From a virus, in the IMG/VR virus record IMGVR_UViG_3300035698_018106, positions 294,717-322,902 of that record: a stretch of 28,186 nt of DNA; one strand, written 5' to 3'. The notes under the pieces were generated by a model. It saw nothing but the letters and a program-made list of their open reading frames with translations, had not been told where the DNA came from and did not search any database. The number at the start of each line of letters is the position of its first letter. The stretch's first letter is position 1. The translations under genes and the position numbers were made by a program. Shown here in pieces: positions 5,394 to 28,186 of the stretch.

Positions 5394-6017
5394 TTATCTT
5401 TTTAACATTTCAATATAATTATCTCGTAGATATAAAAAATTACTAGGCTTAAAATTTATATCATCAACAATTTCTTTAAACAAATGATTTGCCTCATCAA
5501 ACACCATTATTTTTTGATATTTTTTCATTTGTATACCAAATATTAATATTCTAATAGCATGCCAAATACCCTTCTTAACAACTAAACTTATTTCTTCACT
5601 ATCTTTTTCAATTACCCATCTTTTATCAGCTATATGCCAACTATTAGATGATTGTGTGATAACTTTTTTAATAAGTTCTTTCTCGTAAAATTTGTTTATC
5701 TTAAAATTGAATTTTTTCTTTATAATTTGATCATCATCCAAAGATATTGCTTCTAATGCTGGCATCATATAATTATTAATAGCATCAATAAACCCACCTT
5801 TACTATAAGGTGTGCCTTGGATTGATTTACTATGGTTGCTTACTGCATTATCTTTAAATGAACCGCTACGTAATAAAGATGTTTTGAAAACTATTATATA
5901 ATCATCATCAGAATCTTCTCTATTAGTTCCATATACTTTAGAACCATACGGATATATATTCCATATGTCATCTATATCAAAATTTAATTCCTTACAAATA
6001 TATTCTGGTGTATACAT
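5394..6017 (-). CDS. nucleotidyltransferase-fold protein (NTP_transf_2 / Pol-beta superfamily)
   Basis: N-terminal YGSKVYGTNREDSDDDYIIVF matches the GS-x9-13-DxD signature (consensus FGSYARG....SDIDLLV). Confidence 0.6.
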   Translation of the reverse strand: MYTPEYICKELNFDIDDIWNIYPYGSKVYGTNREDSDDDYIIVFKTSLLRSGSFKDNAVSNHSKSIQGTPYSKGGFIDAINNYMMPALEAISLDDDQIIKKKFNFKINKFYEKELIKKVITQSSNSWHIADKRWVIEKDSEEISLVVKKGIWHAIRILIFGIQMKKYQKIMVFDEANHLFKEIVDDINFKPSNFLYLRDNYIEMLKR

Positions 6018-6019
6018 TA

Positions 6020-6445
6020 TTAGCTTTGTTTAATTAGATATCCTTTAGAAGCTTTAAATATAGTATACCATATATCTTGATATTTAAAAGTAACTTTATC
6101 TAATGAAAATTCAGATACTTCTACATAATCACAATATAATAATTTTACTTCGCCAGCGCCATAAACGCCTGGAGGAATATGTCCCTCAAAATCTTTATAT
6201 TCCCATGGGTGGTCTTCGGTTTGTATTACCATTCTGACCTTCCCTCTTTTACTTGGAAATTCATGTTTAGGTATAACATAAGAACGAAGTACTTTGCCTT
6301 CTGTGGTCACTACTGGTTCACTAGTAGTATCTAAACGTTTCGTTAAATATGTTTCTATATCCCCACCATCTTCAAACCGGACATCCCAATGAAGTCCGGC
6401 TTTAAAAGCATGATGTTCTTGTATAACTAATAGACGTTTATCCAT
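6020..6445 (-). CDS. LigD-type 3'-phosphoesterase domain protein (polynucleotide 3'-phosphatase/3'-ribonuclease, stand-alone)
   Basis: VIQEHHA..LHWDVRFE ... RSYVIPK ... VIQTEDHPWEYKDFEGHIPPGVYGAGEV matches the LigD PE-domain hallmarks (QKH.A..LHYD.RLE, W.VPKGP, VEDHPLDY.DFEG.IP...YGAG). Confidence 0.75.
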   Translation of the reverse strand: MDKRLLVIQEHHAFKAGLHWDVRFEDGGDIETYLTKRLDTTSEPVVTTEGKVLRSYVIPKHEFPSKRGKVRMVIQTEDHPWEYKDFEGHIPPGVYGAGEVKLLYCDYVEVSEFSLDKVTFKYQDIWYTIFKASKGYLIKQS

Positions 6446-7472: not shown

Positions 7473-7490
7473 AATTTTTTAATTTTGATT

Positions 7491-7552
7491 TAAGTAAATA
7501 TAACCATTTACATCAACAGTAAAAAATTTTAAATGTTAAAAAATGTTAATTA
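7491..7552 (-). promoter_or_regulatory. promoter cassette copy a (core + TGTTAA direct repeat)
   Basis: TAAATATAACCATTTAC...AAATGTTAAAAAATGTTAA; about 20 nt upstream of ATG 7472. Confidence 0.5.
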
Positions 7553-7894
7553 ATCTTTAGATGTATTAAATAGTTGTCTTAATTCCTTTGCTTTGATAAA
7601 CAAATATTTAATCATTTCATCATAAAAATCAGGGACGGATTTCATCTTCGAAATCATTTTATCATTATAAGGATTTAATTCAACAACTGTATTACCCGCA
7701 TGTACATAAATAGTCCAATCATCAGCATGTCTTTGTTTTTGAACTTTGGCGACATTACATGAAGAACCTATACCGATTTCACCACCATTACCGTTCAAAA
7801 TAGTTTTGACTAGTTCATCTATAAATTCTTCTTTATTATCTTCTATATCATGTAGATTATCATGATATATGGTTACAGTTGTTAAATATCCCAT
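7550..7894 (-). CDS. hypothetical protein
   Basis: 114 aa ORF; last gene of the ABC-ATPase/kinase block. Confidence 0.5.
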   Translation of the reverse strand: MGYLTTVTIYHDNLHDIEDNKEEFIDELVKTILNGNGGEIGIGSSCNVAKVQKQRHADDWTIYVHAGNTVVELNPYNDKMISKMKSVPDFYDEMIKYLFIKAKELRQLFNTSKD

Positions 7895-8159: not shown

Positions 8160-8561
8160 TTATCTTAATTTAATATTAAATCGTTTCTCCATTTTTTCTA
8201 ATGTTTCTATAGGCACATTATGTATGTCAACACCATTATGTCTATTTTCAACAACTATAGAATATACTTTATATCCATATTTCTTTGCTAAATCATAATA
8301 AGGTTTCAATTCTCTTTCAGTTGTAGAAGTATTAGCTACACATATTTTTGGTAAACCATGCTCCATAGCTCTTTTTGTTTCAGCTTGACACCATGCATGG
8401 GCTTCACCTATCTTATCAAGAGACCAATTATAATTACCATCTTTATCAGTAAAATAATCATCAGCAGATAACACCTGTTGAGATATTAAATTAGCAAATG
8501 AGGTTTTACCACATCCAGGCACGCCCCGGACCATTATAAGATCCTTAATTTCTTCTTTCAT
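8160..8561 (-). CDS. polynucleotide 5'-kinase (kinase domain only), T4 Pnk-like P-loop kinase
   Basis: IMVRGVPGCGKTSF (Walker A), LSADDYF and CVANTSTTERELKPYYDLAKKYGYKV...NRHNGVDIHNVPIETLEKM parallel the T4 Pnk kinase domain (TIGCPGSGKST / NRDDYR / SDTNLNPERR...EYGWKV); no phosphatase domain, 133 aa. Confidence 0.8.
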   Translation of the reverse strand: MKEEIKDLIMVRGVPGCGKTSFANLISQQVLSADDYFTDKDGNYNWSLDKIGEAHAWCQAETKRAMEHGLPKICVANTSTTERELKPYYDLAKKYGYKVYSIVVENRHNGVDIHNVPIETLEKMEKRFNIKLR

Positions 8562-10104: not shown

Positions 10105-10120
10105 ATTTTTATTTTTAAAT

Positions 10121-10190
10121 TTATAATAGTTAAATATAACCATTTACTATAAGAGTAAAAAATCTGAAATGTTAATAAATGTTAAAATTA
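10121..10190 (-). promoter_or_regulatory. promoter cassette copy b
   Basis: TAAATATAACCATTTACTATAAGAGTAAAAAATCTGAAATGTTAATAAATGTTAAAA. Confidence 0.5.
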
Positions 10191-10196
10191 ATTTAA

Positions 10197-10228
10197 CTAA
10201 AAAATCGACTATCTCTAGAGATAGTCGA
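10197..10228 (-). terminator. intrinsic-terminator-like hairpin + T-run (24-nt perfect palindrome TCGACTATCTCTAGAGATAGTCGA then TTTTTTAGTTA)
   Basis: 11-bp perfect stem; identical TTTTTTAGTTA tail as the 5352-5385 hairpin; just upstream of cassette b. Confidence 0.5.
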
Positions 10229-10764: not shown

Positions 10765-10790
10765 ATCTCCTCCTCCAATTATTAATAAAT

Positions 10791-10860
10791 TAATTATAGT
10801 ATAAATATAACCATTTACTTTAAGAGTAGAAAATATTAAATGTTAAAAAATGTTAAAATT
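10791..10860 (-). promoter_or_regulatory. promoter cassette copy c
   Basis: ATAAATATAACCATTTACTTTAAGAGTAGAAAATATTAAATGTTAAAAAATGTTAAAA; the stop of 10853-11794 sits inside the second TGTTAA. Confidence 0.5.
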
Positions 10861-14581: not shown

Positions 14582-14589
14582 ATATTTTT

Positions 14590-14658
14590 TAATTATAGTT
14601 AAATATAACCAAATTTACATTAAGAGAACAATTGCAAATGTTAATAAATGTTAATTGT
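14590..14658 (-). promoter_or_regulatory. promoter cassette copy d
   Basis: TAAATATAACCAAATTTACATTAAGAGAACAATTGCAAATGTTAATAAATGTTAA. Confidence 0.5.
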
Positions 14659-14686
14659 ATCACCTTTATTATATTTTCCTATAGAA

Positions 14687-15693: not shown

Positions 15694-15759
15694 AATAAAA
15701 TTTAATTTGAATACATATTATTAAATTGAATATTTCCATTAACAAATCTTTTTATTTAA

Positions 15760-15830
15760 ATTTGTAATAGTTAAATATAACCAAATTTACAATACTAGAA
15801 CAATTCTAAATGTTAAAAAATGTTAAACAT
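15760..15830 (-). promoter_or_regulatory. promoter cassette copy e
   Basis: TTAAATATAACCAAATTTACAATACTAGAACAATTCTAAATGTTAAAAAATGTTAAA. Confidence 0.5.
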
Positions 15831-17616: not shown

Positions 17617-17625
17617 ATTGTATAA

Positions 17626-17697
17626 TTTTTAATTTAGATAAAAATAACCAATTTTACTTATTAAGAACAATATTAAATGTTAATAAATGTTAAAATG
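17626..17697 (-). promoter_or_regulatory. promoter cassette copy f (core variant AAAAATAACCAATTTTAC)
   Basis: ...TTAAGAACAATATTAAATGTTAATAAATGTTAAAA. Confidence 0.45.
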
Positions 17698-17704
17698 ACT
17701 TAAT

Positions 17705-18444: not shown

Positions 18445-18508
18445 AGTTAAGTAAATATATCCAATTTTACTTAATAAGAACAATATTAAATGTTAAAAAA
18501 TGTTAATT
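18445..18508 (-). promoter_or_regulatory. promoter cassette copy g (core variant TAAATATATCCAATTTTAC)
   Basis: ...TAATAAGAACAATATTAAATGTTAAAAAATGTTAA. Confidence 0.45.
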
Positions 18509-18733
18509 ATAAAATTGTTTTTGCATATGGACATGTCCTCTTCCAATACCAACAAGAAATTTCATATGTTTAGAAGACACTGAGCCATACTCTTGTCCAT
18601 CTATTAACATTGTTAATATACCAATCCCATCTAAAAAATTAATGATATCTTGTTTCAAATTACATCTTATCTCTTTTTTACCAAGAGAAAACGAACCATT
18701 ATTTTTATTAAAGAAACCAATTTTCTTCCCCAT
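18503..18733 (-). CDS. hypothetical protein (76 aa from MGKKIGFF; the track's 18760 start is a TTG)
   Basis: its TAA stop is supplied by the second TGTTAA of cassette g. Confidence 0.4.
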   Translation of the reverse strand: MGKKIGFFNKNNGSFSLGKKEIRCNLKQDIINFLDGIGILTMLIDGQEYGSVSSKHMKFLVGIGRGHVHMQKQFYN

Positions 18734-19378: not shown

Positions 19379-19391
19379 ATATTTTTTTATT

Positions 19392-19455
19392 TAGTTAAAT
19401 ATAACCAAATTTACTATAAGAGAACAATTTTAAATGTTAAAAAATGTTAAAAATT
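19392..19455 (-). promoter_or_regulatory. promoter cassette copy h
   Basis: TTAAATATAACCAAATTTACTATAAGAGAACAATTTTAAATGTTAAAAAATGTTAAAA. Confidence 0.5.
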
Positions 19456-20271
19456 AGTATATTGTTTAAGGGCAGCTTTAATAGTATCCATTGAAAAAGA
19501 CTTTCCATCAATCTCAATACTTGTATCACTTCTATTAACAACTTCTTCTGATGTTATTTTCTTAAATAAACTATTATTAACATAACATATTGTATTTTCA
19601 TTATAATGAAGTGCTAATGCGCAAATATTGTTAGTTTGATTCTTAACATACTTAATTGATGTAGGTGATTGAGTAATAGCTGCCATACAAATTTCTTCAG
19701 ATTGTTGTTTAACATATTGTAACATCTGTCCATTTATCTTTACTGCTACTAAACAAACTTTATCAAAATGTATATGAATATACTTTAATGCCGTAGGTGA
19801 TTGAGTAACTGCAACCATACAAATTCTAAGTGATTGATTTCTAACATATTGTACTGCATTCCCATTTTGTTCAACTGCTGCTAAACATATCTCCTCAGTT
19901 TGCTGATGTACTAAACATAATAGTAATCCATCTTGTTTAACGGCGGCCAAACAATTATCAAGTGTTTGTATAATAACATACTTAAAAGCATTACTATTTT
20001 GTTTAATAGCTTCTAAACAAATCTCTTCAGTTTGTTTCTTTACATATTGTAAAGCATTTGTATCTTTTCTAACAGCTGCTAAACAAATCTCTTCAGTTTG
20101 CTCATCTACAAACGTCAATGCTCCGCTATTCGTCAGAACAGCCATCATAGCCTCTCCACCAGTCAAATCACATTTTGGACCAGCATATATATAATGCTTA
20201 TCTCTATAATTTTTTAAGTGCTTAGGGCAATTTCTATTAAAAGTATCTTGCAAATGAGTTTGTTTTAACAT
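19447..20271 (-). CDS. 22-aa tandem-repeat protein (DUF4116-like), paralog 1
   Basis: about 9 repeats of EQTEEICLAAV[KR]QNG.ALQYVK plus the conserved tail IEIDGKSFSMDTIKAALKQYTNF; its stop lies inside cassette h. Confidence 0.6.
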   Translation of the reverse strand: MLKQTHLQDTFNRNCPKHLKNYRDKHYIYAGPKCDLTGGEAMMAVLTNSGALTFVDEQTEEICLAAVRKDTNALQYVKKQTEEICLEAIKQNSNAFKYVIIQTLDNCLAAVKQDGLLLCLVHQQTEEICLAAVEQNGNAVQYVRNQSLRICMVAVTQSPTALKYIHIHFDKVCLVAVKINGQMLQYVKQQSEEICMAAITQSPTSIKYVKNQTNNICALALHYNENTICYVNNSLFKKITSEEVVNRSDTSIEIDGKSFSMDTIKAALKQYTNF

Positions 20272-20618: not shown

Positions 20619-20627
20619 AATTTTATA

Positions 20628-20698
20628 ATTTTATAATAGTTAAATATAACCAAATTTACTATAAGAGAACAATATTAAATGTTAAAAAATGTTAAAAA
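20628..20698 (-). promoter_or_regulatory. promoter cassette copy i
   Basis: TTAAATATAACCAAATTTACTATAAGAGAACAATATTAAATGTTAAAAAATGTTAAAA (near-identical to h). Confidence 0.5.
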
Positions 20699-21309
20699 CT
20701 AATATATTGCTTAAGTGCAGCTTTAATAGTATCCTTTGAAAAAGTCTTACCATCAATCTCAATCTCATTATTTTCTTCTTTAAACATATCTTCCTTTACA
20801 TATTGTAATGCACGCACATCTTGTTTAACAGCTTCTAAACATATCTCTTCAGTTTGCTCATTAACATAACGTAAAGCATGACCATTTTGTCTAACAGCTT
20901 TTAAACATATCTCTGGAGTTTGTTCTAATACATATTGTAATACAAATCCATTTTGTTTAATTGCTACTAAACACATCTCTTCAGTTTGCTCTTTTACATA
21001 TTGTAATGCATCCCCATCTTGTTTAACTGCTTCTAAACATATCGCTTCAGTTTGCTCTTTAACATAACGTAATGCATGACCATTTTGTTTAACTCCTGCT
21101 AAACATATCTCTGGTGTTTGCACCCTTACATACTGTAATGCATGACCTTTTTGTCTAACTGCTTCTAAACATATCTTTTCAGTTTGCTCATTAACATAAT
21201 GTAATACATAACCATCTTCTCTAACAGCTTCTAACGCTGCATCACCAGTTAAATTACATTTATCTTCTAACTTATCATAATCACTTTTATAATCTTTCAA
21301 ATCTTTCAT
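20692..21309 (-). CDS. 22-aa tandem-repeat protein (DUF4116-like), paralog 2 (start at MKDLKDYKSDYDKL; the track's 21333 start is a TTG)
   Basis: about 8 repeats and the tail IEIDGKTFSKDTIKAALKQYISF; the N-terminus matches paralog 3; its stop lies inside cassette i. Confidence 0.6.
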   Translation of the reverse strand: MKDLKDYKSDYDKLEDKCNLTGDAALEAVREDGYVLHYVNEQTEKICLEAVRQKGHALQYVRVQTPEICLAGVKQNGHALRYVKEQTEAICLEAVKQDGDALQYVKEQTEEMCLVAIKQNGFVLQYVLEQTPEICLKAVRQNGHALRYVNEQTEEICLEAVKQDVRALQYVKEDMFKEENNEIEIDGKTFSKDTIKAALKQYISF

Positions 21310-21360
21310 TATCCTTTTTTTCATTATATTCAAATATATCTATAATCTATCACAATATAA

Positions 21361-21387
21361 AATCTAAAATGTTAAAAGATGTTATAG
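21361..21387 (-). promoter_or_regulatory. partial cassette (direct repeat only, core replaced)
   Basis: AAAATGTTAAAAGATGTTATAG upstream of paralog 2; abuts the G-free island arm. Confidence 0.3.
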
Positions 21388-21603
21388 ATATCTCTTTACT
21401 CATCTCGTACACCCACTCTAACACCCTCTCAATCTCTCACTCTTCTACTTATATTACTACATCTCACTCTATATCATTCACTGTATTTCACTAAACTAAC
21501 TCTTCTAACTCCCTTACCCTCTCTCACATATTCCCTAACCTCGCGAGCTTCCCTACATTATCACAATAATTATTTTTATAATATAACATATAATATAAAC
21601 TAT

Positions 21604-21825
21604 CTAATAAATCTCTTCAAACTTACACTCTAATACAACATCAGAACTCTTTAAAAACTCTCTCATCTTATCATAACTATAAGATATCTTATATACAACT
21701 CTATTCATACCCTTACTTGCAATAAACCCTATAGTACACATCTTCTCAGGATCCCAATCATAATATCTCTCTATCAAACATCCATCTATCACTAACATAC
21801 TATCATTATACTCTATTATCTTCAT
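21604..21825 (-). CDS. small hypothetical protein in the G-depleted island arm
   Basis: 73 aa ORF with ATG start; its coding strand is C-poor. Confidence 0.35.
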   Translation of the reverse strand: MKIIEYNDSMLVIDGCLIERYYDWDPEKMCTIGFIASKGMNRVVYKISYSYDKMREFLKSSDVVLECKFEEIY

Positions 21826-22056
21826 AACCTTAAATTTTTTTATATTTTCTATATCTCTTTAATATTAATAATATATACAAATCACAAATAAATTCTAAAC
21901 AAATCACAAACAAATCCCTACAAAGTAATCCTGTCAGGGCTCAAACCTAATCAATCAAAACGGCGCGCCTCTATCTCGAAACTGCTGTCACCTTGAGATA
22001 GTTACAGATATATAATTTCGAGTATAAGATTCTCCCTGTTTCGCCCTGAGACATAT

Positions 22057-22077
22057 AATGTAACATATGTTACAAAA
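22057..22077. repeat. 21-bp element AATGTAACATATGTTACAAAA containing a 16-bp perfect palindrome, copy 1
   Basis: exact repeat of 22112-22132. Confidence 0.6.
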
Positions 22078-22111
22078 TTTACCTTATACGAACTGTGGGA
22101 ATGGTATTAAG

Positions 22112-22132
22112 AATGTAACATATGTTACAAAA
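22112..22132. repeat. 21-bp element AATGTAACATATGTTACAAAA, copy 2 (overlaps the stop codon of 22125-22379)
   Basis: exact repeat of 22057-22077, 55 bp apart. Confidence 0.6.
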
Positions 22133-22379
22133 AGTTGATAAGAACCATATTATCTTTAGGAACTGAGTAGATTTCAATTGTATTAGAAAGAAGTTTGCAA
22201 TCAAGGATTCGGTATATGAGAGTAAAGTATTTTTGAGGGACTGTTATTTCCATTGTAGAGTAAGTAGTCCAGCATATATCGATATCTGATTTGTTTATGA
22301 ACTCGTTAGTATTTTGATATACCAGATTAATGAGTTCATTTTGCAAGTTCATTATATTATTGATATCTTTGTAGTCCAT
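22125..22379 (-). CDS. hypothetical protein in the C-depleted island arm (84 aa from MDYKD; the track's 22469 start is a TTG inside the promoter core)
   Basis: the track start is the TTG of ATTTGGTTATATTT; the first ATG is 22377-22379; the stop overlaps a 16-bp perfect palindrome. Confidence 0.35.
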   Translation of the reverse strand: MDYKDINNIMNLQNELINLVYQNTNEFINKSDIDICWTTYSTMEITVPQKYFTLIYRILDCKLLSNTIEIYSVPKDNMVLINFL

Positions 22380-22454
22380 TAGTTGGTGGATTATTTTTTC
22401 ATTTTGATTATTTAGATTAATACTGAGATTAAATGTTTTATTTTTATTAGTCAG

Positions 22455-22490
22455 TATAAATATAACCAAAATAATATAGTTAGGGCAATT
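22455..22490 (-). promoter_or_regulatory. core-only cassette variant (type-2-like)
   Basis: AAATATAACCAAAATAATATAGTTAGGGCAA upstream of 22125-22379. Confidence 0.3.
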
Positions 22491-23094
22491 AATGTGTGAT
22501 TAAATTAGATTTAATTTTATTTAGTTGTTTTAAAGTTATAGTTTTTGCGTTAGCTGTATATTCTTTGCGTATTAATATTTTTTGAGATTCTGGAAGTGTG
22601 TGATATGTTTCGCGTACACCGTGGTGGTATTTAACTATAGTAGATTCTTTCCACATAGTAGCTTTGAGGATATTATAGTATAGAGTTGAGATTATTTTCT
22701 TTTCAATTTTTGATAGGTTATATATTTGGTGTGTATTGCTCCATTTAACTAGTTTTTTATATGATAGAGGGAATTTATATTTTTCAAGTAGGTAGTTGAT
22801 AGTATGTGTGTGTGTAGTAAAGAAAGATATAGTATTGAGTTTTCTTGATTTGTTTCTTTGATTGTTGTATTTAGATTGGAGTTGTATATATTTTTCTTTA
22901 TTATTTTTTATATAGGTTTTAGTATAAGCTGCATCTTTAGCTTTATTGAGAGGGTTTGTTCTTCTTTTTTTAGTTTGTTCTTTGCTACAAAGTGAGCATC
23001 GAATTATATCTTTTTTTCCATAGTTGTAGATGTTATGGATAGTAATTACATTATGTTCAGAACAAAATTTAGATATTGTATTTATTTTAGCCAC
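22489..23094 (-). CDS. hypothetical Cys-cluster protein (N-terminal CSEHN...RCSLC), GTG start
   Basis: 201 aa ORF with GTG start (cac 23092-23094) and no in-frame ATG for about 150 codons; plus strand is almost C-free here. Confidence 0.4.
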   Translation of the reverse strand: MAKINTISKFCSEHNVITIHNIYNYGKKDIIRCSLCSKEQTKKRRTNPLNKAKDAAYTKTYIKNNKEKYIQLQSKYNNQRNKSRKLNTISFFTTHTHTINYLLEKYKFPLSYKKLVKWSNTHQIYNLSKIEKKIISTLYYNILKATMWKESTIVKYHHGVRETYHTLPESQKILIRKEYTANAKTITLKQLNKIKSNLITH

Positions 23095-23210
23095 AATTAA
23101 TTATTTAGAGGGTGCACGACTGATTAAATTTAGTATTAAAGATATAAGATAATATGTATATGATATATGAGTTGAAGAGATGATTGATAGAGTGATTGAG
23201 AGATATGATA

Positions 23211-23420
23211 TTAGTTAGTAGGTTGTTCCCAATCGATAGTACCTGTGATTACGAATTCTGTTTGGCAGTTATCGCAAGTCATTTCGGCGTAAGTTGTAGT
23301 ATCAAGAGAGTACATTGATTTGGTATCTTGTATAGATTTGTTTGTATTAGGGTTAGGTAGATAGATTGATGGGTTACCTGTTGCTCTTGTTTTGGTTGAA
23401 TTACAGTTTGGACATTTCAT
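23211..23420 (-). CDS. small zinc-ribbon protein
   Basis: CPNC...CDNC pairs; 69 aa. Confidence 0.4.
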   Translation of the reverse strand: MKCPNCNSTKTRATGNPSIYLPNPNTNKSIQDTKSMYSLDTTTYAEMTCDNCQTEFVITGTIDWEQPTN

Positions 23421-23532
23421 AGTAGTTTATAATATATATTTATAATTTAAGTGACACTGAGTTGAGTGTTAAATGAATGTTATAGTAATATACATAAAAC
23501 ATTGGAATAACACTCAGATAACATTCGAGTGA

Positions 23533-23718
23533 TTAGTCGATGTAGTAAGTAACTGTTGTTTCAGAGATAACATTGAAATGTTTTCTACAATGAGGGCATT
23601 GAACTAGTTCAGTAAAATCTTTGATGTTATCTTGTTTGATAGTTATGCCGCCTTGACAGTGTTTGCAATAGAGGTCAAGAGTTTCATCAGATTTAGATTT
23701 AGAAAGGATGAGGTTCAT
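23533..23718 (-). CDS. small zinc-ribbon protein
   Basis: CKHC...CPHC pairs; 61 aa. Confidence 0.4.
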   Translation of the reverse strand: MNLILSKSKSDETLDLYCKHCQGGITIKQDNIKDFTELVQCPHCRKHFNVISETTVTYYID

Positions 23719-23723
23719 ATATT

Positions 23724-24248
23724 TTAGTTTTTAAGTTTAAATATTGTTTCATCGATATCAACAGATACAACTTCAAGACCTAGCATATTGACAATACATG
23801 AGTAGTATTTAGGTCTTCTAACAAAATCAACAAGAGCTTCATTATGTTCAGAACAGAATCCATGGAATATATTAACGAATCCTAGGAAGATATCATGATG
23901 AGGATCGAGTTGATGATCATTTCTGATATCAGAAAGCATGTTTAATACTTTAGTTTCTATATTAATTTTGCGTTCCGGATTAATATTGTTTAATGTAAAT
24001 ACATGTGATATAGTAATATGATTATAGTTAACATTGGCCATAGAATAAGACTCTATATTTTCAAGAGATTCTCCGTTATAGAGTTTAAAGTAAGCTCTAC
24101 AGTAGAGGTTATCTTCTAATTTATAGATTTTATGAGATACCCCATTATAGTGTGCAGTGCAATTAGGGTATAGATGTTTAAGATATCTAACAGTTTTACA
24201 ATCTCTTAATTCTTTAGAGATAATTATATTGATTTCTATTTCTTTCAT
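23724..24248 (-). CDS. hypothetical protein (174 aa)
   Basis: first gene after degenerate cassette k (AGTTAA-N4-AGTTAA). Confidence 0.45.
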   Translation of the reverse strand: MKEIEINIIISKELRDCKTVRYLKHLYPNCTAHYNGVSHKIYKLEDNLYCRAYFKLYNGESLENIESYSMANVNYNHITISHVFTLNNINPERKINIETKVLNMLSDIRNDHQLDPHHDIFLGFVNIFHGFCSEHNEALVDFVRRPKYYSCIVNMLGLEVVSVDIDETIFKLKN

Positions 24249-24267
24249 ATTTTTGAATTTGTATATT

Positions 24268-24326
24268 GTAAATATAATTAATATTACTATAACAGAAAAA
24301 TATTAAAAGTTAAATAAAGTTAAAAT
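24268..24326 (-). promoter_or_regulatory. degenerate cassette k (AGTTAA-N4-AGTTAA)
   Basis: AAATATAATTAATATTACTATAACAGAAAAATATTAAAAGTTAAATAAAGTTAAAA. Confidence 0.35.
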
Positions 24327-25294
24327 GATTTATTTACATCTATTTTTCTTTCAAAAGATAGTAAAGCGTTTTTAATATATTCATGAGGATATTCATTACC
24401 TTCGAAAATAATAGCAGATTGTTTTGGGAACATGTAATTATTAACATACATTAATGCTTTTATGTTTTGTTTAACAGCTCCTAAACATATCTCTTCAGTT
24501 TGTTCTTTAACATAACGTAATGTTTCTCCATCTTGTTTAACAGCAGCTAAACATATCTCTTCAGTTTGCTCTAATATATATTGTAATGTATTACCATTTT
24601 GTTTAACAGCTCTTAAACACATCTCTTCAGTTTGCTCATTAACAAATTGAAATGCATTACCATTTTGTTTAACTGCTTCTAAACATATTTCTTCAGTTTG
24701 CTTCTTAACATAACGTAATGCATAACCATTCTTTCTAACAGCAGCTAAACATATCTCTGGAGTTTGCTCATTTACAAAACGTAATGCATAACCATTCTTT
24801 CTAACAGCTTCCATACACATCTCCTCAGTTTGCTCAATTTGCTCATTAACATATTTTAATGCATAACCATTCTTTCTAACAGCTTCTAAACAAATCTCCT
24901 CAGTTTGCTCTTTAACATAGTATAATACAAATCCATGTTGTCTAACTACTTCTAAACATATCTTTTCAGTTTGTTCTTTAACAAATTGAAATGCATTACC
25001 AATTTCTTTAACTGCTTCTAAACATATCTCTTCAGTTTGTTCTTTAACATATTGTAATGCTAAACCATTCTTTCTAACAGCTTCCATACACATCTCCTCA
25101 GTTTGCTCATTTACAAAACGTAATGCTTCATTATGTTGTTTAACAGCTGCTAAACAAATCTCTGGAGTTTGTTCCTTAACAAATTGTAATGCGTTACCAT
25201 CTTGTTTAACAGCTTCTAACGCTTCTTCACCAGTTAAATTACACTTGTTCTTTAACTTATCATACTTACATTTATAATCTTTCAAATCTTTCAT
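24320..25294 (-). CDS. 22-aa tandem-repeat protein (DUF4116-like), paralog 3, longest (324 aa)
   Basis: about 12 repeats; divergent C-terminal tail; its stop lies inside cassette k; preceded by cassette l. Confidence 0.6.
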   Translation of the reverse strand: MKDLKDYKCKYDKLKNKCNLTGEEALEAVKQDGNALQFVKEQTPEICLAAVKQHNEALRFVNEQTEEMCMEAVRKNGLALQYVKEQTEEICLEAVKEIGNAFQFVKEQTEKICLEVVRQHGFVLYYVKEQTEEICLEAVRKNGYALKYVNEQIEQTEEMCMEAVRKNGYALRFVNEQTPEICLAAVRKNGYALRYVKKQTEEICLEAVKQNGNAFQFVNEQTEEMCLRAVKQNGNTLQYILEQTEEICLAAVKQDGETLRYVKEQTEEICLGAVKQNIKALMYVNNYMFPKQSAIIFEGNEYPHEYIKNALLSFERKIDVNKSF

Positions 25295-25310
25295 TATGTT
25301 TTTGTTTTAA

Positions 25311-25380
25311 ATTTATAATAGTTAAATATAACCAAATAGGTTGATAATAAAAAATATTAAATGTTAAAAGATGTTAAAAA
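25311..25380 (-). promoter_or_regulatory. promoter cassette copy l
   Basis: TTAAATATAACCAAATAGG...AAAAAATATTAAATGTTAAAAGATGTTAAAA. Confidence 0.45.
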
Positions 25381-25489
25381 ATTAATATTTTAGAATGAGG
25401 CAAGTTGGAGTATACTCTCTAAGAAGTGTGTGAAATAAAAAAGCTTCTAACCCTTTTGCTTAATAAGCTATTACGTATTTATAAACGTC

Positions 25490-26318: not shown

Positions 26319-26334
26319 AATGTTTTTGTTTTAA

Positions 26335-26403
26335 ATTTATAATAGTTAAATATAACTAATTTTACTATAAGAGAGCAATGTTAAATGTTAAAAGTTGTTA
26401 AAT
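26335..26403 (-). promoter_or_regulatory. promoter cassette copy m
   Basis: TTAAATATAACTAATTTTACTATAAGAGAGCAATGTTAAATGTTAAAAGTTGTTAAA. Confidence 0.45.
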
Positions 26404-26469
26404 GTATATAGTGACATTTAGTGATATGTATTTAAAGAGATGTATATACATATTAACCAGACTGTAGTG

Positions 26470-27580: not shown

Positions 27581-27604
27581 GATGTATATTGTTTAAATTT
27601 GTAT

Positions 27605-27668
27605 AAGATAAATATAACCATTTGCTTTAACAGTAAAAAATATTAAATGTTAAAATATGTTAAATGTT
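27605..27668 (-). promoter_or_regulatory. promoter cassette copy n
   Basis: ATAAATATAACCATTTGCTTTAACAGTAAAAAATATTAAATGTTAAAATATGTTAAA. Confidence 0.45.
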
Positions 27669-27733
27669 TTTAGTGATATTTAGTGCATTATAATAGTATT
27701 CTTTGAAAAAGTCTTACCATCAATCTCTACTTT

Positions 27734-28186
27734 TTATAAAAATAGATCCTCTTTAACATACTTTAATGCTTTTATGTTTTGTTTAATAGCAGCTAAACAG
27801 ATTTCTTCAGTTTGTTCTAATACATATTGTAATGCATAACCATTTTGTCTAACTGCTTCTAAACATATCGCTTCAGTTTGTTCTTTAACATATTGTAATG
27901 CAGAAGCATGTTGTTTAACAGCTTCCATACACATCTCCTCAGTTTGCTCATTTACATAACGTAACGCTTCTCCATTTTGTCTAACAGCAGCTAAACATAT
28001 CTCTTCAGTTTGCTTTTTAATAAATTGTAATGTATGACCGCTATGTTTAACAGCTTCCATACACATCTCCTCAGTTTGCTCAGTTTGCTCATTAACATAT
28101 TTTAATGCATAACCATTTTGTTTAACTGCTTCTAAACAAATCTCCTCAGTTTGTTCTAATACATATTGTAATGCTAAACCATTTTG
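27734..28186 (-). CDS. 22-aa tandem-repeat protein (DUF4116-like), paralog 4; 5' end lies beyond the window; C-terminus cut short by an in-frame TAA
   Basis: the frame stays open from 28066 to the window end (..QNGLALQYVLEQTEEICLEAVKQNGYALKYVNEQTEQTEEMCMEAV..); the conserved tail KVEIDGKTFSKNTII is in frame but 3' of the TAA at 27734. Confidence 0.5.
   Translation of the reverse strand, partial: QNGLALQYVLEQTEEICLEAVKQNGYALKYVNEQTEQTEEMCMEAVKHSGHTLQFIKKQTEEICLAAVRQNGEALRYVNEQTEEMCMEAVKQHASALQYVKEQTEAICLEAVRQNGYALQYVLEQTEEICLAAIKQNIKALKYVKEDLFL

Follow-up and report, generated by a model that had tools for sequence, protein, structure and literature searches.

What purpose is served by two identical palindromes at the centre of an island of orphan genes in a viral genome? 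The question is raised by a stretch of 28,186 nucleotides (positions 294,717 to 322,902 of the IMG/VR virus record IMGVR_UViG_3300035698_018106; hereafter the window), in which the 21-mer AATGTAACATATGTTACAAAA occurs twice in and at the edge of a short gene-free segment. The initial annotation had offered several functions for these elements: binding sites of a dimeric protein (an origin-binding or partition protein, or a repressor), a twin terminator, or a nick or resolution site. The reading favoured here, to which we assign a probability of roughly 0.45, is that the two boxes are a pair of consensus-strength sites for a dimeric HcpR2-type regulator of the CRP/FNR family, likely supplied by a Bacteroidota host, and not terminators.

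The structural description given earlier was reproduced in full. Both copies match AATGTAACATATGTTACAAAA exactly, with starts 55 bp apart; each contains the perfect 16-bp palindrome TGTAACATATGTTACA, and the second copy overlaps the stop codon of the adjacent gene. The gene-free centre, estimated before at about 290 bp, measures 299 bp (21826-22124), and the small motifs, the hairpin and the GC-rich core described upstream of the boxes are all present (Table 1). The box centres are likewise 55 bp apart, equal to about five helical turns. A third copy of the 21-mer or of the palindrome is absent from the window with three mismatches allowed, and the box is absent from a further ~10.4 kb of the same phage obtained from other assemblies. 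Over the ~38.6 kb covered in all, the motif is thus not common at gene ends, as a generic terminator would be. Perfect palindromes of at least 16 bp number seven in the window against 1.9 expected, and GTAACNNNNGTTAC is matched perfectly in the window by the two boxes only and nowhere in a control of 1.1 Mb of unrelated A+T-rich viral DNA. The box pair exceeds chance.

Beyond the 21-mer the identity between the copies breaks off abruptly, with no relation in the 34-bp spacer or in the outer flanks. Tandem Repeats Finder does not report a 55-bp repeat, and a 55-bp tandem duplication was rejected as there is no sign of one. A mini-CRISPR composed of 21-bp repeats and a 34-bp spacer was also rejected, because there are only two repeats, both palindromic, and no cas gene; furthermore, in other phages the same pair has spacers of 7-9 bp (12-14 nt separating the 16-mer cores). 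The LexA-like motifs of Bacteroidota, GGA-N5-TCC and CTAA-N5-TTAG, do not fit the boxes. All public contigs carrying this DNA are at least 99.9% identical to the window (100% in all but one), the similarity of the core to any fetched locus is confined to the box, and the exact box sequence was not found in a literature search. The phage is present in the samples ERZ27315765, ERZ27315796, ERZ27315830, ERZ27316032, SRR7528854 and JGI 3300023293 and 3300023294. A metagenome scan for paired 16-mers yielded two contigs only, both unrelated.

The evidence for a regulator comes from the sequence of the boxes as read on the gene strand. Both copies then give the 20-mer TTTGTAACATATGTTACATT, a perfect match to the HcpR2 box GTAACnnnnGTTAC, and no other perfect match to this box exists in the window. 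Rodionov et al. (2005, PMC1274295) describe this box, a 14-bp dyad, in front of the hcp genes of Bacteroides, Clostridium, Thermotogales and Treponema. HcpR, which depends on haem to bind the hcp promoter, activates it on nitric oxide (NO) or nitrite (PMC12750200; PMC13370916), a signal which in Bacteroides reports gut inflammation and nitrite exposure (PMC13370916).

The 20-mer TTTGTAACATATGTTACATT was scanned in 185,579 prokaryotic genomes, one per species, and the 59 loci obtained are distributed among Bacteroidota (42, mostly Bacteroidales), DPANN and related archaea (eight), Clostridia (five) and others (four). A member of the HcpR regulon is the nearest gene downstream at 36 of these 59 loci: a 4Fe-4S protein of ~300 amino acids (aa) at 18 loci (Pfam Fer4), hcp at 11 (Prismane), a CRP/FNR regulator at four (cNMP_binding and HTH_Crp_2) and an MFS transporter at three (MFS_1). 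A -7 box resembling TAnnTTTG follows the 20-mer at 19-20 nt in 22 of 29 hcp and ferredoxin promoters, which places the dyad near -41.5, the position of a class-II activator. As a separate observation, three Lachnospiraceae/Clostridium loci (L196, L202 and L209) carry the 20-mer between iron-type alcohol dehydrogenase-like and TetR-like genes on one strand, enclosed by a longer inverted repeat, aaagttacaat...attgtaacttt; next to the hcp-type loci and the archaeal loci described below, this is a third, non-hcp context.

The window boxes resemble the HcpR2 boxes of hcp promoters in their perfect sequence match, including the extended 20-nt form, and in the dyad-symmetric 16-mer that is usual for CRP/FNR dimers. 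They differ in lying on a phage, whereas the known boxes are chromosomal, and in being present as two copies 55 bp apart, where the known promoters have one; moreover, no nitrosative-stress gene follows in the window and the gene strand lacks TAnnTTTG at 19-20 nt. The perfect HcpR-type match indicates that the boxes are most likely protein-binding switches and not terminators. The proposal of a dimeric-protein site therefore stands in its repressor-like form and can be sharpened to a putative HcpR2 box; its other part, use by an origin-binding or partition protein, has gained no direct support apart from the local G/C-skew switch. Most likely, the pair would link the orphan gene island to a host stress regulator and act as a regulatory node at the island centre.

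The surroundings of copy 2 suggest how such a node might work. The sequence TATCTTTA begins on the + strand exactly 21 nt past the copy-2 core, in the register of the TAnnTTTG box of Bacteroidota hcp and ferredoxin promoters, and its TAnnTTTA form is that of the phage's own promoter core TATATTTA. A -7-like box has a null frequency of 0.008 per position; with four combinations of box and strand tried, the expectation becomes ~0.03. From the register of copy 2 with TATCTTTA, a rightward promoter under HcpR control may be proposed, which would run antisense to the 84-aa open reading frame (ORF) and to the genes beyond it. If the host possesses an HcpR2-type regulator, its dimers would occupy both boxes, and copy 2 could switch on a rightward transcript antisense to the genes of 84 to 201 aa. 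The pair also spans the 3' limit of the leftward operon; dimers bound there could serve as an insulator or roadblock, separating the right half of the island from what lies on the left, namely the core, the 73-aa ORF and the C-free spacer. The boxes may also titrate HcpR away from host promoters as a decoy, which is possible because both are perfect and are carried on a multicopy replicating genome.

The proposed host follows from the translation and promoter signals of the phage. A Shine-Dalgarno sequence is missing in 63 of 65 genes, and 15 promoter cassettes of ~75 bp, all on the - strand, share the invariant core TTATATTT, present as TATATTTA at a distance of 18-29 nt from the ATG. Each cassette consists of a tandem TTAACA-N4-TTAACA with a 10-bp period, followed by ATTGTTCTCTTATAGTAAA and then by TTATATTT. 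IMG/VR relatives that have four genes in common with the window at 36-62% identity also lack Shine-Dalgarno sites, and carry upstream of their ORFs the sequence TTATATTTG, which fits TAnnTTTG, the Bacteroidota -7 consensus. Missing Shine-Dalgarno sites together with TAnnTTT(A/G) promoter cores make a Bacteroidota host quite probable, and the hairpin-plus-T-run terminators and bacterial domains argue against an archaeal virus. The OmpR-type winged-helix protein (1271-1972) is an obvious candidate for binding the direct repeats of the cassettes. The contig that extends the window to the right contains 14 more TTAACA tandem repeats.

Several points weigh against the assignment of the boxes to HcpR. 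On the - (gene) strand neither copy has a -7 box at activator distance, so the boxes do not resemble sites from which a class-II activator would serve the core or the 73-aa ORF; the sole in-register box, TATCTTTA, is of modest significance, belongs to the opposite strand and has an A where the consensus has a conserved G. No hcp-type or nitrogen-oxide gene is found nearby, and the flanking ORFs are orphans that belong to no Pfam or PHROG family. No CRP/FNR protein was recognised among the window proteins. The same 20-mer is used in DPANN archaea by an unrelated protein, and in T4-like cyanophage contigs the 16-mer is compatible with TGTA-N8-TACA, the consensus of NtcA; consequently, sequence identity does not fix the binding protein. 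As the public copies are near-identical and there is no homologous locus, conservation provides no test of the boxes. The putative binding of HcpR and the direction and sign of any regulation by the boxes are predictions, and the host, too, is deduced from signals in the DNA.

Table 1. Positions of the twin boxes, of the elements surrounding them and of the promoter cassettes, numbered from the first nucleotide of the window
Feature	Position	Strand	Description
Box copy 1	22057-22077	-	21-mer identical to copy 2 and in the same orientation; core (16-bp palindrome) 22059-22074
Box copy 2	22112-22132	-	reads TTTTGTAACATATGTTACATT; core (16-bp palindrome) 22114-22129; perfect GTAACnnnnGTTAC; holds TAA stop (22125-22127) of 84-aa ORF
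TATCTTTA	22151-22158	+	-7-like TAnnTTTA box; candidate promoter firing rightward, antisense to 84-aa ORF
Core	21926-22056		42% G+C against 27% for the window; both G and C present
CCTGTCAGG	21930-21938		small motif in core
GGCGCGCC	21962-21969		small motif in core
Hairpin CTATCTCGA-N13-TTGAGATAG	21971-22001		arms CTATCTC/GAGATAG
11-bp periodic repeat ACAAATCACAA	21877-21916		3.6 copies; TTGTGATTTGT on - strand
84-aa orphan ORF	22125-22379	-	stop in copy 2; last gene of the right half, C-rich and G-poor in sense
73-aa orphan ORF	21604-21825	-	downstream of boxes; sense strand nearly C-free (C3 = 0.00, G3 = 0.31)
Left half of island	21307-21925		+ strand 16 G against 153 C in 619 nt; includes spacer 21307-21603
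Right half of island	22133-24248		+ strand G/T-rich and C-poor; five - strand orphan ORFs of 84, 201, 69, 61 and 174 aa
Promoter cassettes (examples)	20619-20700, 25295-25385, 15745-15830, 7473-7555, 10790-10860, 10118-10190	-	
Promoter cassettes (examples)	19379-19455, 26319-26402, 27581-27665, 14582-14660, 17617-17700, 18445-18510	-	
Diverged promoter cassettes	24249-24330, 21307-21395, 22380-22488	-	

The core that adjoins the boxes is set between a segment that is G-free and one that is C-poor, both on the + strand. Its small motifs CCTGTCAGG and GGCGCGCC and its hairpin are statistically unremarkable (z = 0.13 for the hairpin segment against shuffles). The fold of the whole core does not differ from shuffled sequence on the - strand (z = -0.05) and is weakly better on the + strand (z = -1.4), with no sign of a structured RNA. 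Rfam gave no match at gathering score in the window, and at E < 5 only a chance snoRNA match within 21200-22300; no tRNA was called in the window by ARAGORN. The hairpin has no direct T run, with 10 nt between its stem and GTTTTGATTG on the - strand, and may be a weak terminator or attenuator of the leftward operon. Its arms are shared with a clear intrinsic terminator of the - strand (10205-10228), the perfect 24-bp palindrome TCGACTATCTCTAGAGATAGTCGA, which forms a 10-bp stem of -13.3 kcal/mol followed by T6; this pattern is expected 0.01 times by chance. From the 11-bp repeat to the start of the 73-aa ORF the DNA is nearly pure A+T. At the other end, the CATATG centre of copy 1 provides an ATG on both strands, which opens a 31-aa ORF (21971-22066, -) and a 23-codon ORF (+).

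The boxes and the core sit exactly where the strand asymmetry of the island changes sign. The island as a whole (21307-24248) comprises orphan genes of extreme strand composition between two DUF4116 paralogues. All four of the longest G-free runs of the window (+ strand) are within 21249-21924, and on the right the + strand of 22133-23210 has 203 G against 81 C, with 44% T. The island genes also stand apart from all others in their third codon positions, and the promoter cassettes at both island borders are diverged and have lost the disfavoured base. Spacers of ~110 bp separate the ORFs of 61, 69, 201 and 84 aa (three of the four spacers in the right half), as opposed to the tight packing elsewhere. 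For the ORF whose stop lies in copy 2, a length of 84 aa from the ATG at 22379, as in public gene calls, is likelier than 114 aa from a TTG. The 73-, 84- and 201-aa proteins have no relative among 5.8 billion proteins, those of 84 and 73 aa have none in IMG/VR, and the small island proteins regarded as zinc-ribbon candidates gave weak zinc-ribbon matches only. Reassignment of a stop codon as the cause of the non-coding gaps was rejected: the stops are TAA (55), TGA (8) and TAG (2), and read-through adds almost nothing. The 73-aa ORF is separated from the next DUF4116 gene by the spacer 21307-21603 (-), 297 bp of GA-rich, nearly C-free DNA in which GGG, AGGGA and GAGAG motifs are numerous and a CTCGCGAG palindrome occurs once; the spacer contains no ORF and no Rfam match.

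Proteins other than HcpR also use this sequence. In seven DPANN genomes (L186, L189, L199, L203, L210, L223 and L226), which are diverged Woesearchaeota, Nanoarchaeota and related genomes, the 20-mer overlaps the leaderless start ATGTTACAAAA (MLQK...) of a gene for a winged helix-turn-helix (wHTH)-nucleotidyltransferase of 169-179 aa, followed by a HEPN-like gene (both assigned from sequence), and a TATA-like box is located ~23 nt upstream. The 20-mer there looks like the autoregulatory operator of a mobile toxin-antitoxin cassette; L203 even has a second copy, 56 bp away. In L240, a metagenome contig, the upstream gene has its stop in one palindrome and a Doc/Fic-like gene has its start (MLHF...) in a second one, after a 35-nt gap; the window repeats this layout with a stop in copy 2, a 39-nt gap and an ATG in copy 1 (MLHY...). 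The boxes could accordingly be operators of a non-HcpR repressor from the phage or another mobile element, with the ATG of the palindrome starting a short leaderless ORF. Such a repressor would shut off a micro-gene (the 31-aa ORF on the - strand, or ORFs of 23 or 14 codons on the +) or separate two transcription units, and a perfect TATAAT (22054-22059, +) does stand 7 nt ahead of the copy-1 ATG. We consider this unlikely. The window has no wHTH, HEPN or Doc homologue and only micro-ORFs, tiny and unsupported, start at the palindromes. A profile of the archaeal wHTH proteins (the seven of 169-179 aa and one 25-residue fragment) found nothing in the six-frame translation of the window by hmmsearch (best E = 0.21). 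The only helix-turn-helix protein recognised, among 60 of the 65 predicted proteins scanned, is of the OmpR type, a binder of direct repeats. Bacterial features of the phage also count against this reading: its terminators are hairpins with T runs, and it encodes a SEC-C motif, an OmpR-type domain and a kinase-like ATPase related to proteins of Proteobacteria phages. A link to nitrogen status through cyanophage NtcA boxes (TGTA-N8-TACA) is very improbable. NtcA boxes do occur on cyanophages, and the 16-mer is found in promoter-like intergenic DNA of several contigs of T4-like cyanophage type with genes judged to be ThyX-like and SpeD-like. The window boxes fit GTA-N8-TAC, with TATTAT 19 nt past the copy-2 TAC on the + strand, the NtcA criterion being ~22 nt to a TAN3T -10 box. 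However, no window protein matches the cyanophage-like contigs, cyanobacterial hits make up one of the 59 loci of the 20-mer, and the 26-27% G+C, the near-absent Shine-Dalgarno sites and the TAnnTTT(A/G) cores point to Bacteroidota.

A neutral origin of the pair, in which a palindrome arisen by chance was duplicated locally, or a role as twin intrinsic terminators of the leftward operon draws on the identity of the copies, on the position of copy 2 exactly at a gene end and on other viral contigs (L006 and L030) in which the 16-mer with AGAGA/TCTCT arms and a T run is terminator-like. As RNA, however, the window palindromes pair over just 6 bp (-4.9 and -5.4 kcal/mol), and the bases after the stem, UUCUUAA or UUAUAUG, form no U tract, whereas the real terminators of this genome have 10-12-bp stems and T6, and a terminator scan called nothing at the palindromes. 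Weak stems without a U tract are not intrinsic terminators, and the earlier twin-terminator proposal is abandoned. A duplication would be expected to include arbitrary flanks, yet the identity stops sharply at the 21-mer, and chance does not account for a perfect known 20-mer box present twice; this explanation in either form is considered highly doubtful. It is likewise improbable, though somewhat easier to entertain, that the centre is a replication origin or R-loop initiation zone, in which the palindromes and the 11-bp repeats would be initiator sites and the A+T stretch an unwinding element. The cumulative GC skew of the window is minimal at ~22000, the G-rich strand flips from - on the left to + on the right exactly here, and the repeats at 21877-21916 adjoin the nearly pure A+T stretch. 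R-loop-primed origins, such as ColE1 and T4 ori(uvsY), are favoured by G-rich non-template strands flanking a promoter-bearing core, and by analogy the window core has a G-rich non-template strand on both sides. Nevertheless, the skew is limited to ~3 kb and the genome trend resumes on both sides, which replication skew would not show; it alters both the amino-acid composition and the third positions of the orphan genes in a manner just as compatible with foreign DNA. The motif that the boxes match is that of a transcription factor and not a known initiator site, and among the window genes none was recognised as a replication, initiator, helicase, primase, partition or recombinase gene, so that for the origin, partition and resolution roles suggested before, only the local G/C-skew switch can be cited. 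The switch itself resembles the skew of a bidirectional origin or G-rich non-template strands beside a divergent promoter; it could equally come from two joined foreign pieces.

The HcpR reading of the pair can be compared with the occurrence of the same sequence on other phages. The 16-mer was found in 57 IMG/VR contigs in mixed contexts, and the 20-mer occurs twice in two unrelated IMG/VR phage contigs: L009 (3668-3713; 30 bp apart) and L053 (6190-6233; 28 bp apart). Both pairs are intergenic, lie directly upstream of a portal gene and have the same flanks (TTTG...CATT). As in the window, the two copies are identical, are equally oriented with respect to the genes downstream and occupy intergenic DNA of a tailed phage; the differences are the spacing (28-30 against 55 bp), the location upstream of a late structural gene and the lack of any protein shared with the window. 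A bolder generalisation, which we regard as speculative and rather unlikely, would be that phages of anaerobic Bacteroidota carry perfect HcpR-box pairs in order to read or blunt the NO/nitrite alarm of the host. In the present phage this would operate through NO-induced antisense transcription and a roadblock, or through soaking up HcpR during genome amplification, which would sensitise the host to nitrosative stress; in L009 and L053 such a pair would control the portal and late genes. In addition, the oppositely G-rich flanks may mark an R-loop-prone divergent transcription unit doubling as an origin.

The remainder of the window gives a general picture of the phage. It has 27% G+C with all 65 plausible genes on the - strand, and has the appearance of an early or accessory part of the genome of a large tailed phage; a search of INPHARED found no close or related phage. 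Its genes include many small ORFs, five DUF4116 repeat proteins, the OmpR-type winged-helix protein, an AAA/ABC-like ATPase, a LigD-type 3'-phosphoesterase and a SEC-C motif, and its kinase-like ATPase is 46-50% identical to proteins of Proteobacteria phages. The DUF4116 genes are multicopy, with 75-83% DNA identity between paralogues (19447-20271, 20692-21306, 24320-25294 and 27734-28066). A paralogue past the right end of the window has 265 aa in one contig (L249) and 312 aa in another (L250), which suggests variation in repeat number between strains. A possible RNA/DNA end-repair set (62-700, 5394-6017, 6020-6445 and 8160-8561) comprises a weak HD-domain match, a weak nucleotidyltransferase-like match, the LigD 3'-phosphoesterase (E = 2e-13) and an AAA_33 kinase-like ATPase, whose homologues adjoin RNA ligase genes in many large phages. 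A second motif, CACTAAAT(G/A)TCACTA(T/A)A(T/A)ACATTTAACA, is located directly upstream of two promoter cassettes (26403-26430 and 27666-27690, -), and the related CACTCAACTCAGTGTCACTTAAAT is found in the spacer 23421-23532.

Boxes of host regulators on phages are a known phenomenon, of which the present pair, on the HcpR reading, is an instance: NtcA and PhoB boxes are carried by cyanophages and LexA boxes by temperate phages. The likeness lies in intergenic phage DNA with consensus sites for a host sensor-regulator, and the difference in the signal, as the regulator implied here senses NO or nitrite. To our knowledge, an HcpR-type regulator has not previously been linked to phages, and a literature search, in which the term matching was noisy, did not turn up any paper on phage-borne HcpR boxes. 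Should HcpR indeed bind here, the phage would be wiring part of its programme to the nitrosative-stress sensor of its host, and NO sensing would join the short list of host signals known to be read by phages through host regulators, for example SOS, nitrogen, phosphate and quorum signals. Paired GTAACATATGTTAC boxes would then offer a simple sequence handle for finding such phages. At the same time, motif-based regulon prediction calls for caution, since unrelated proteins of Bacteroidota, Clostridia and DPANN archaea have a single exact 20-mer as their operator. The strand-composition island in which the boxes are set may, finally, bear on the origin and upkeep of orphan genes in phages.

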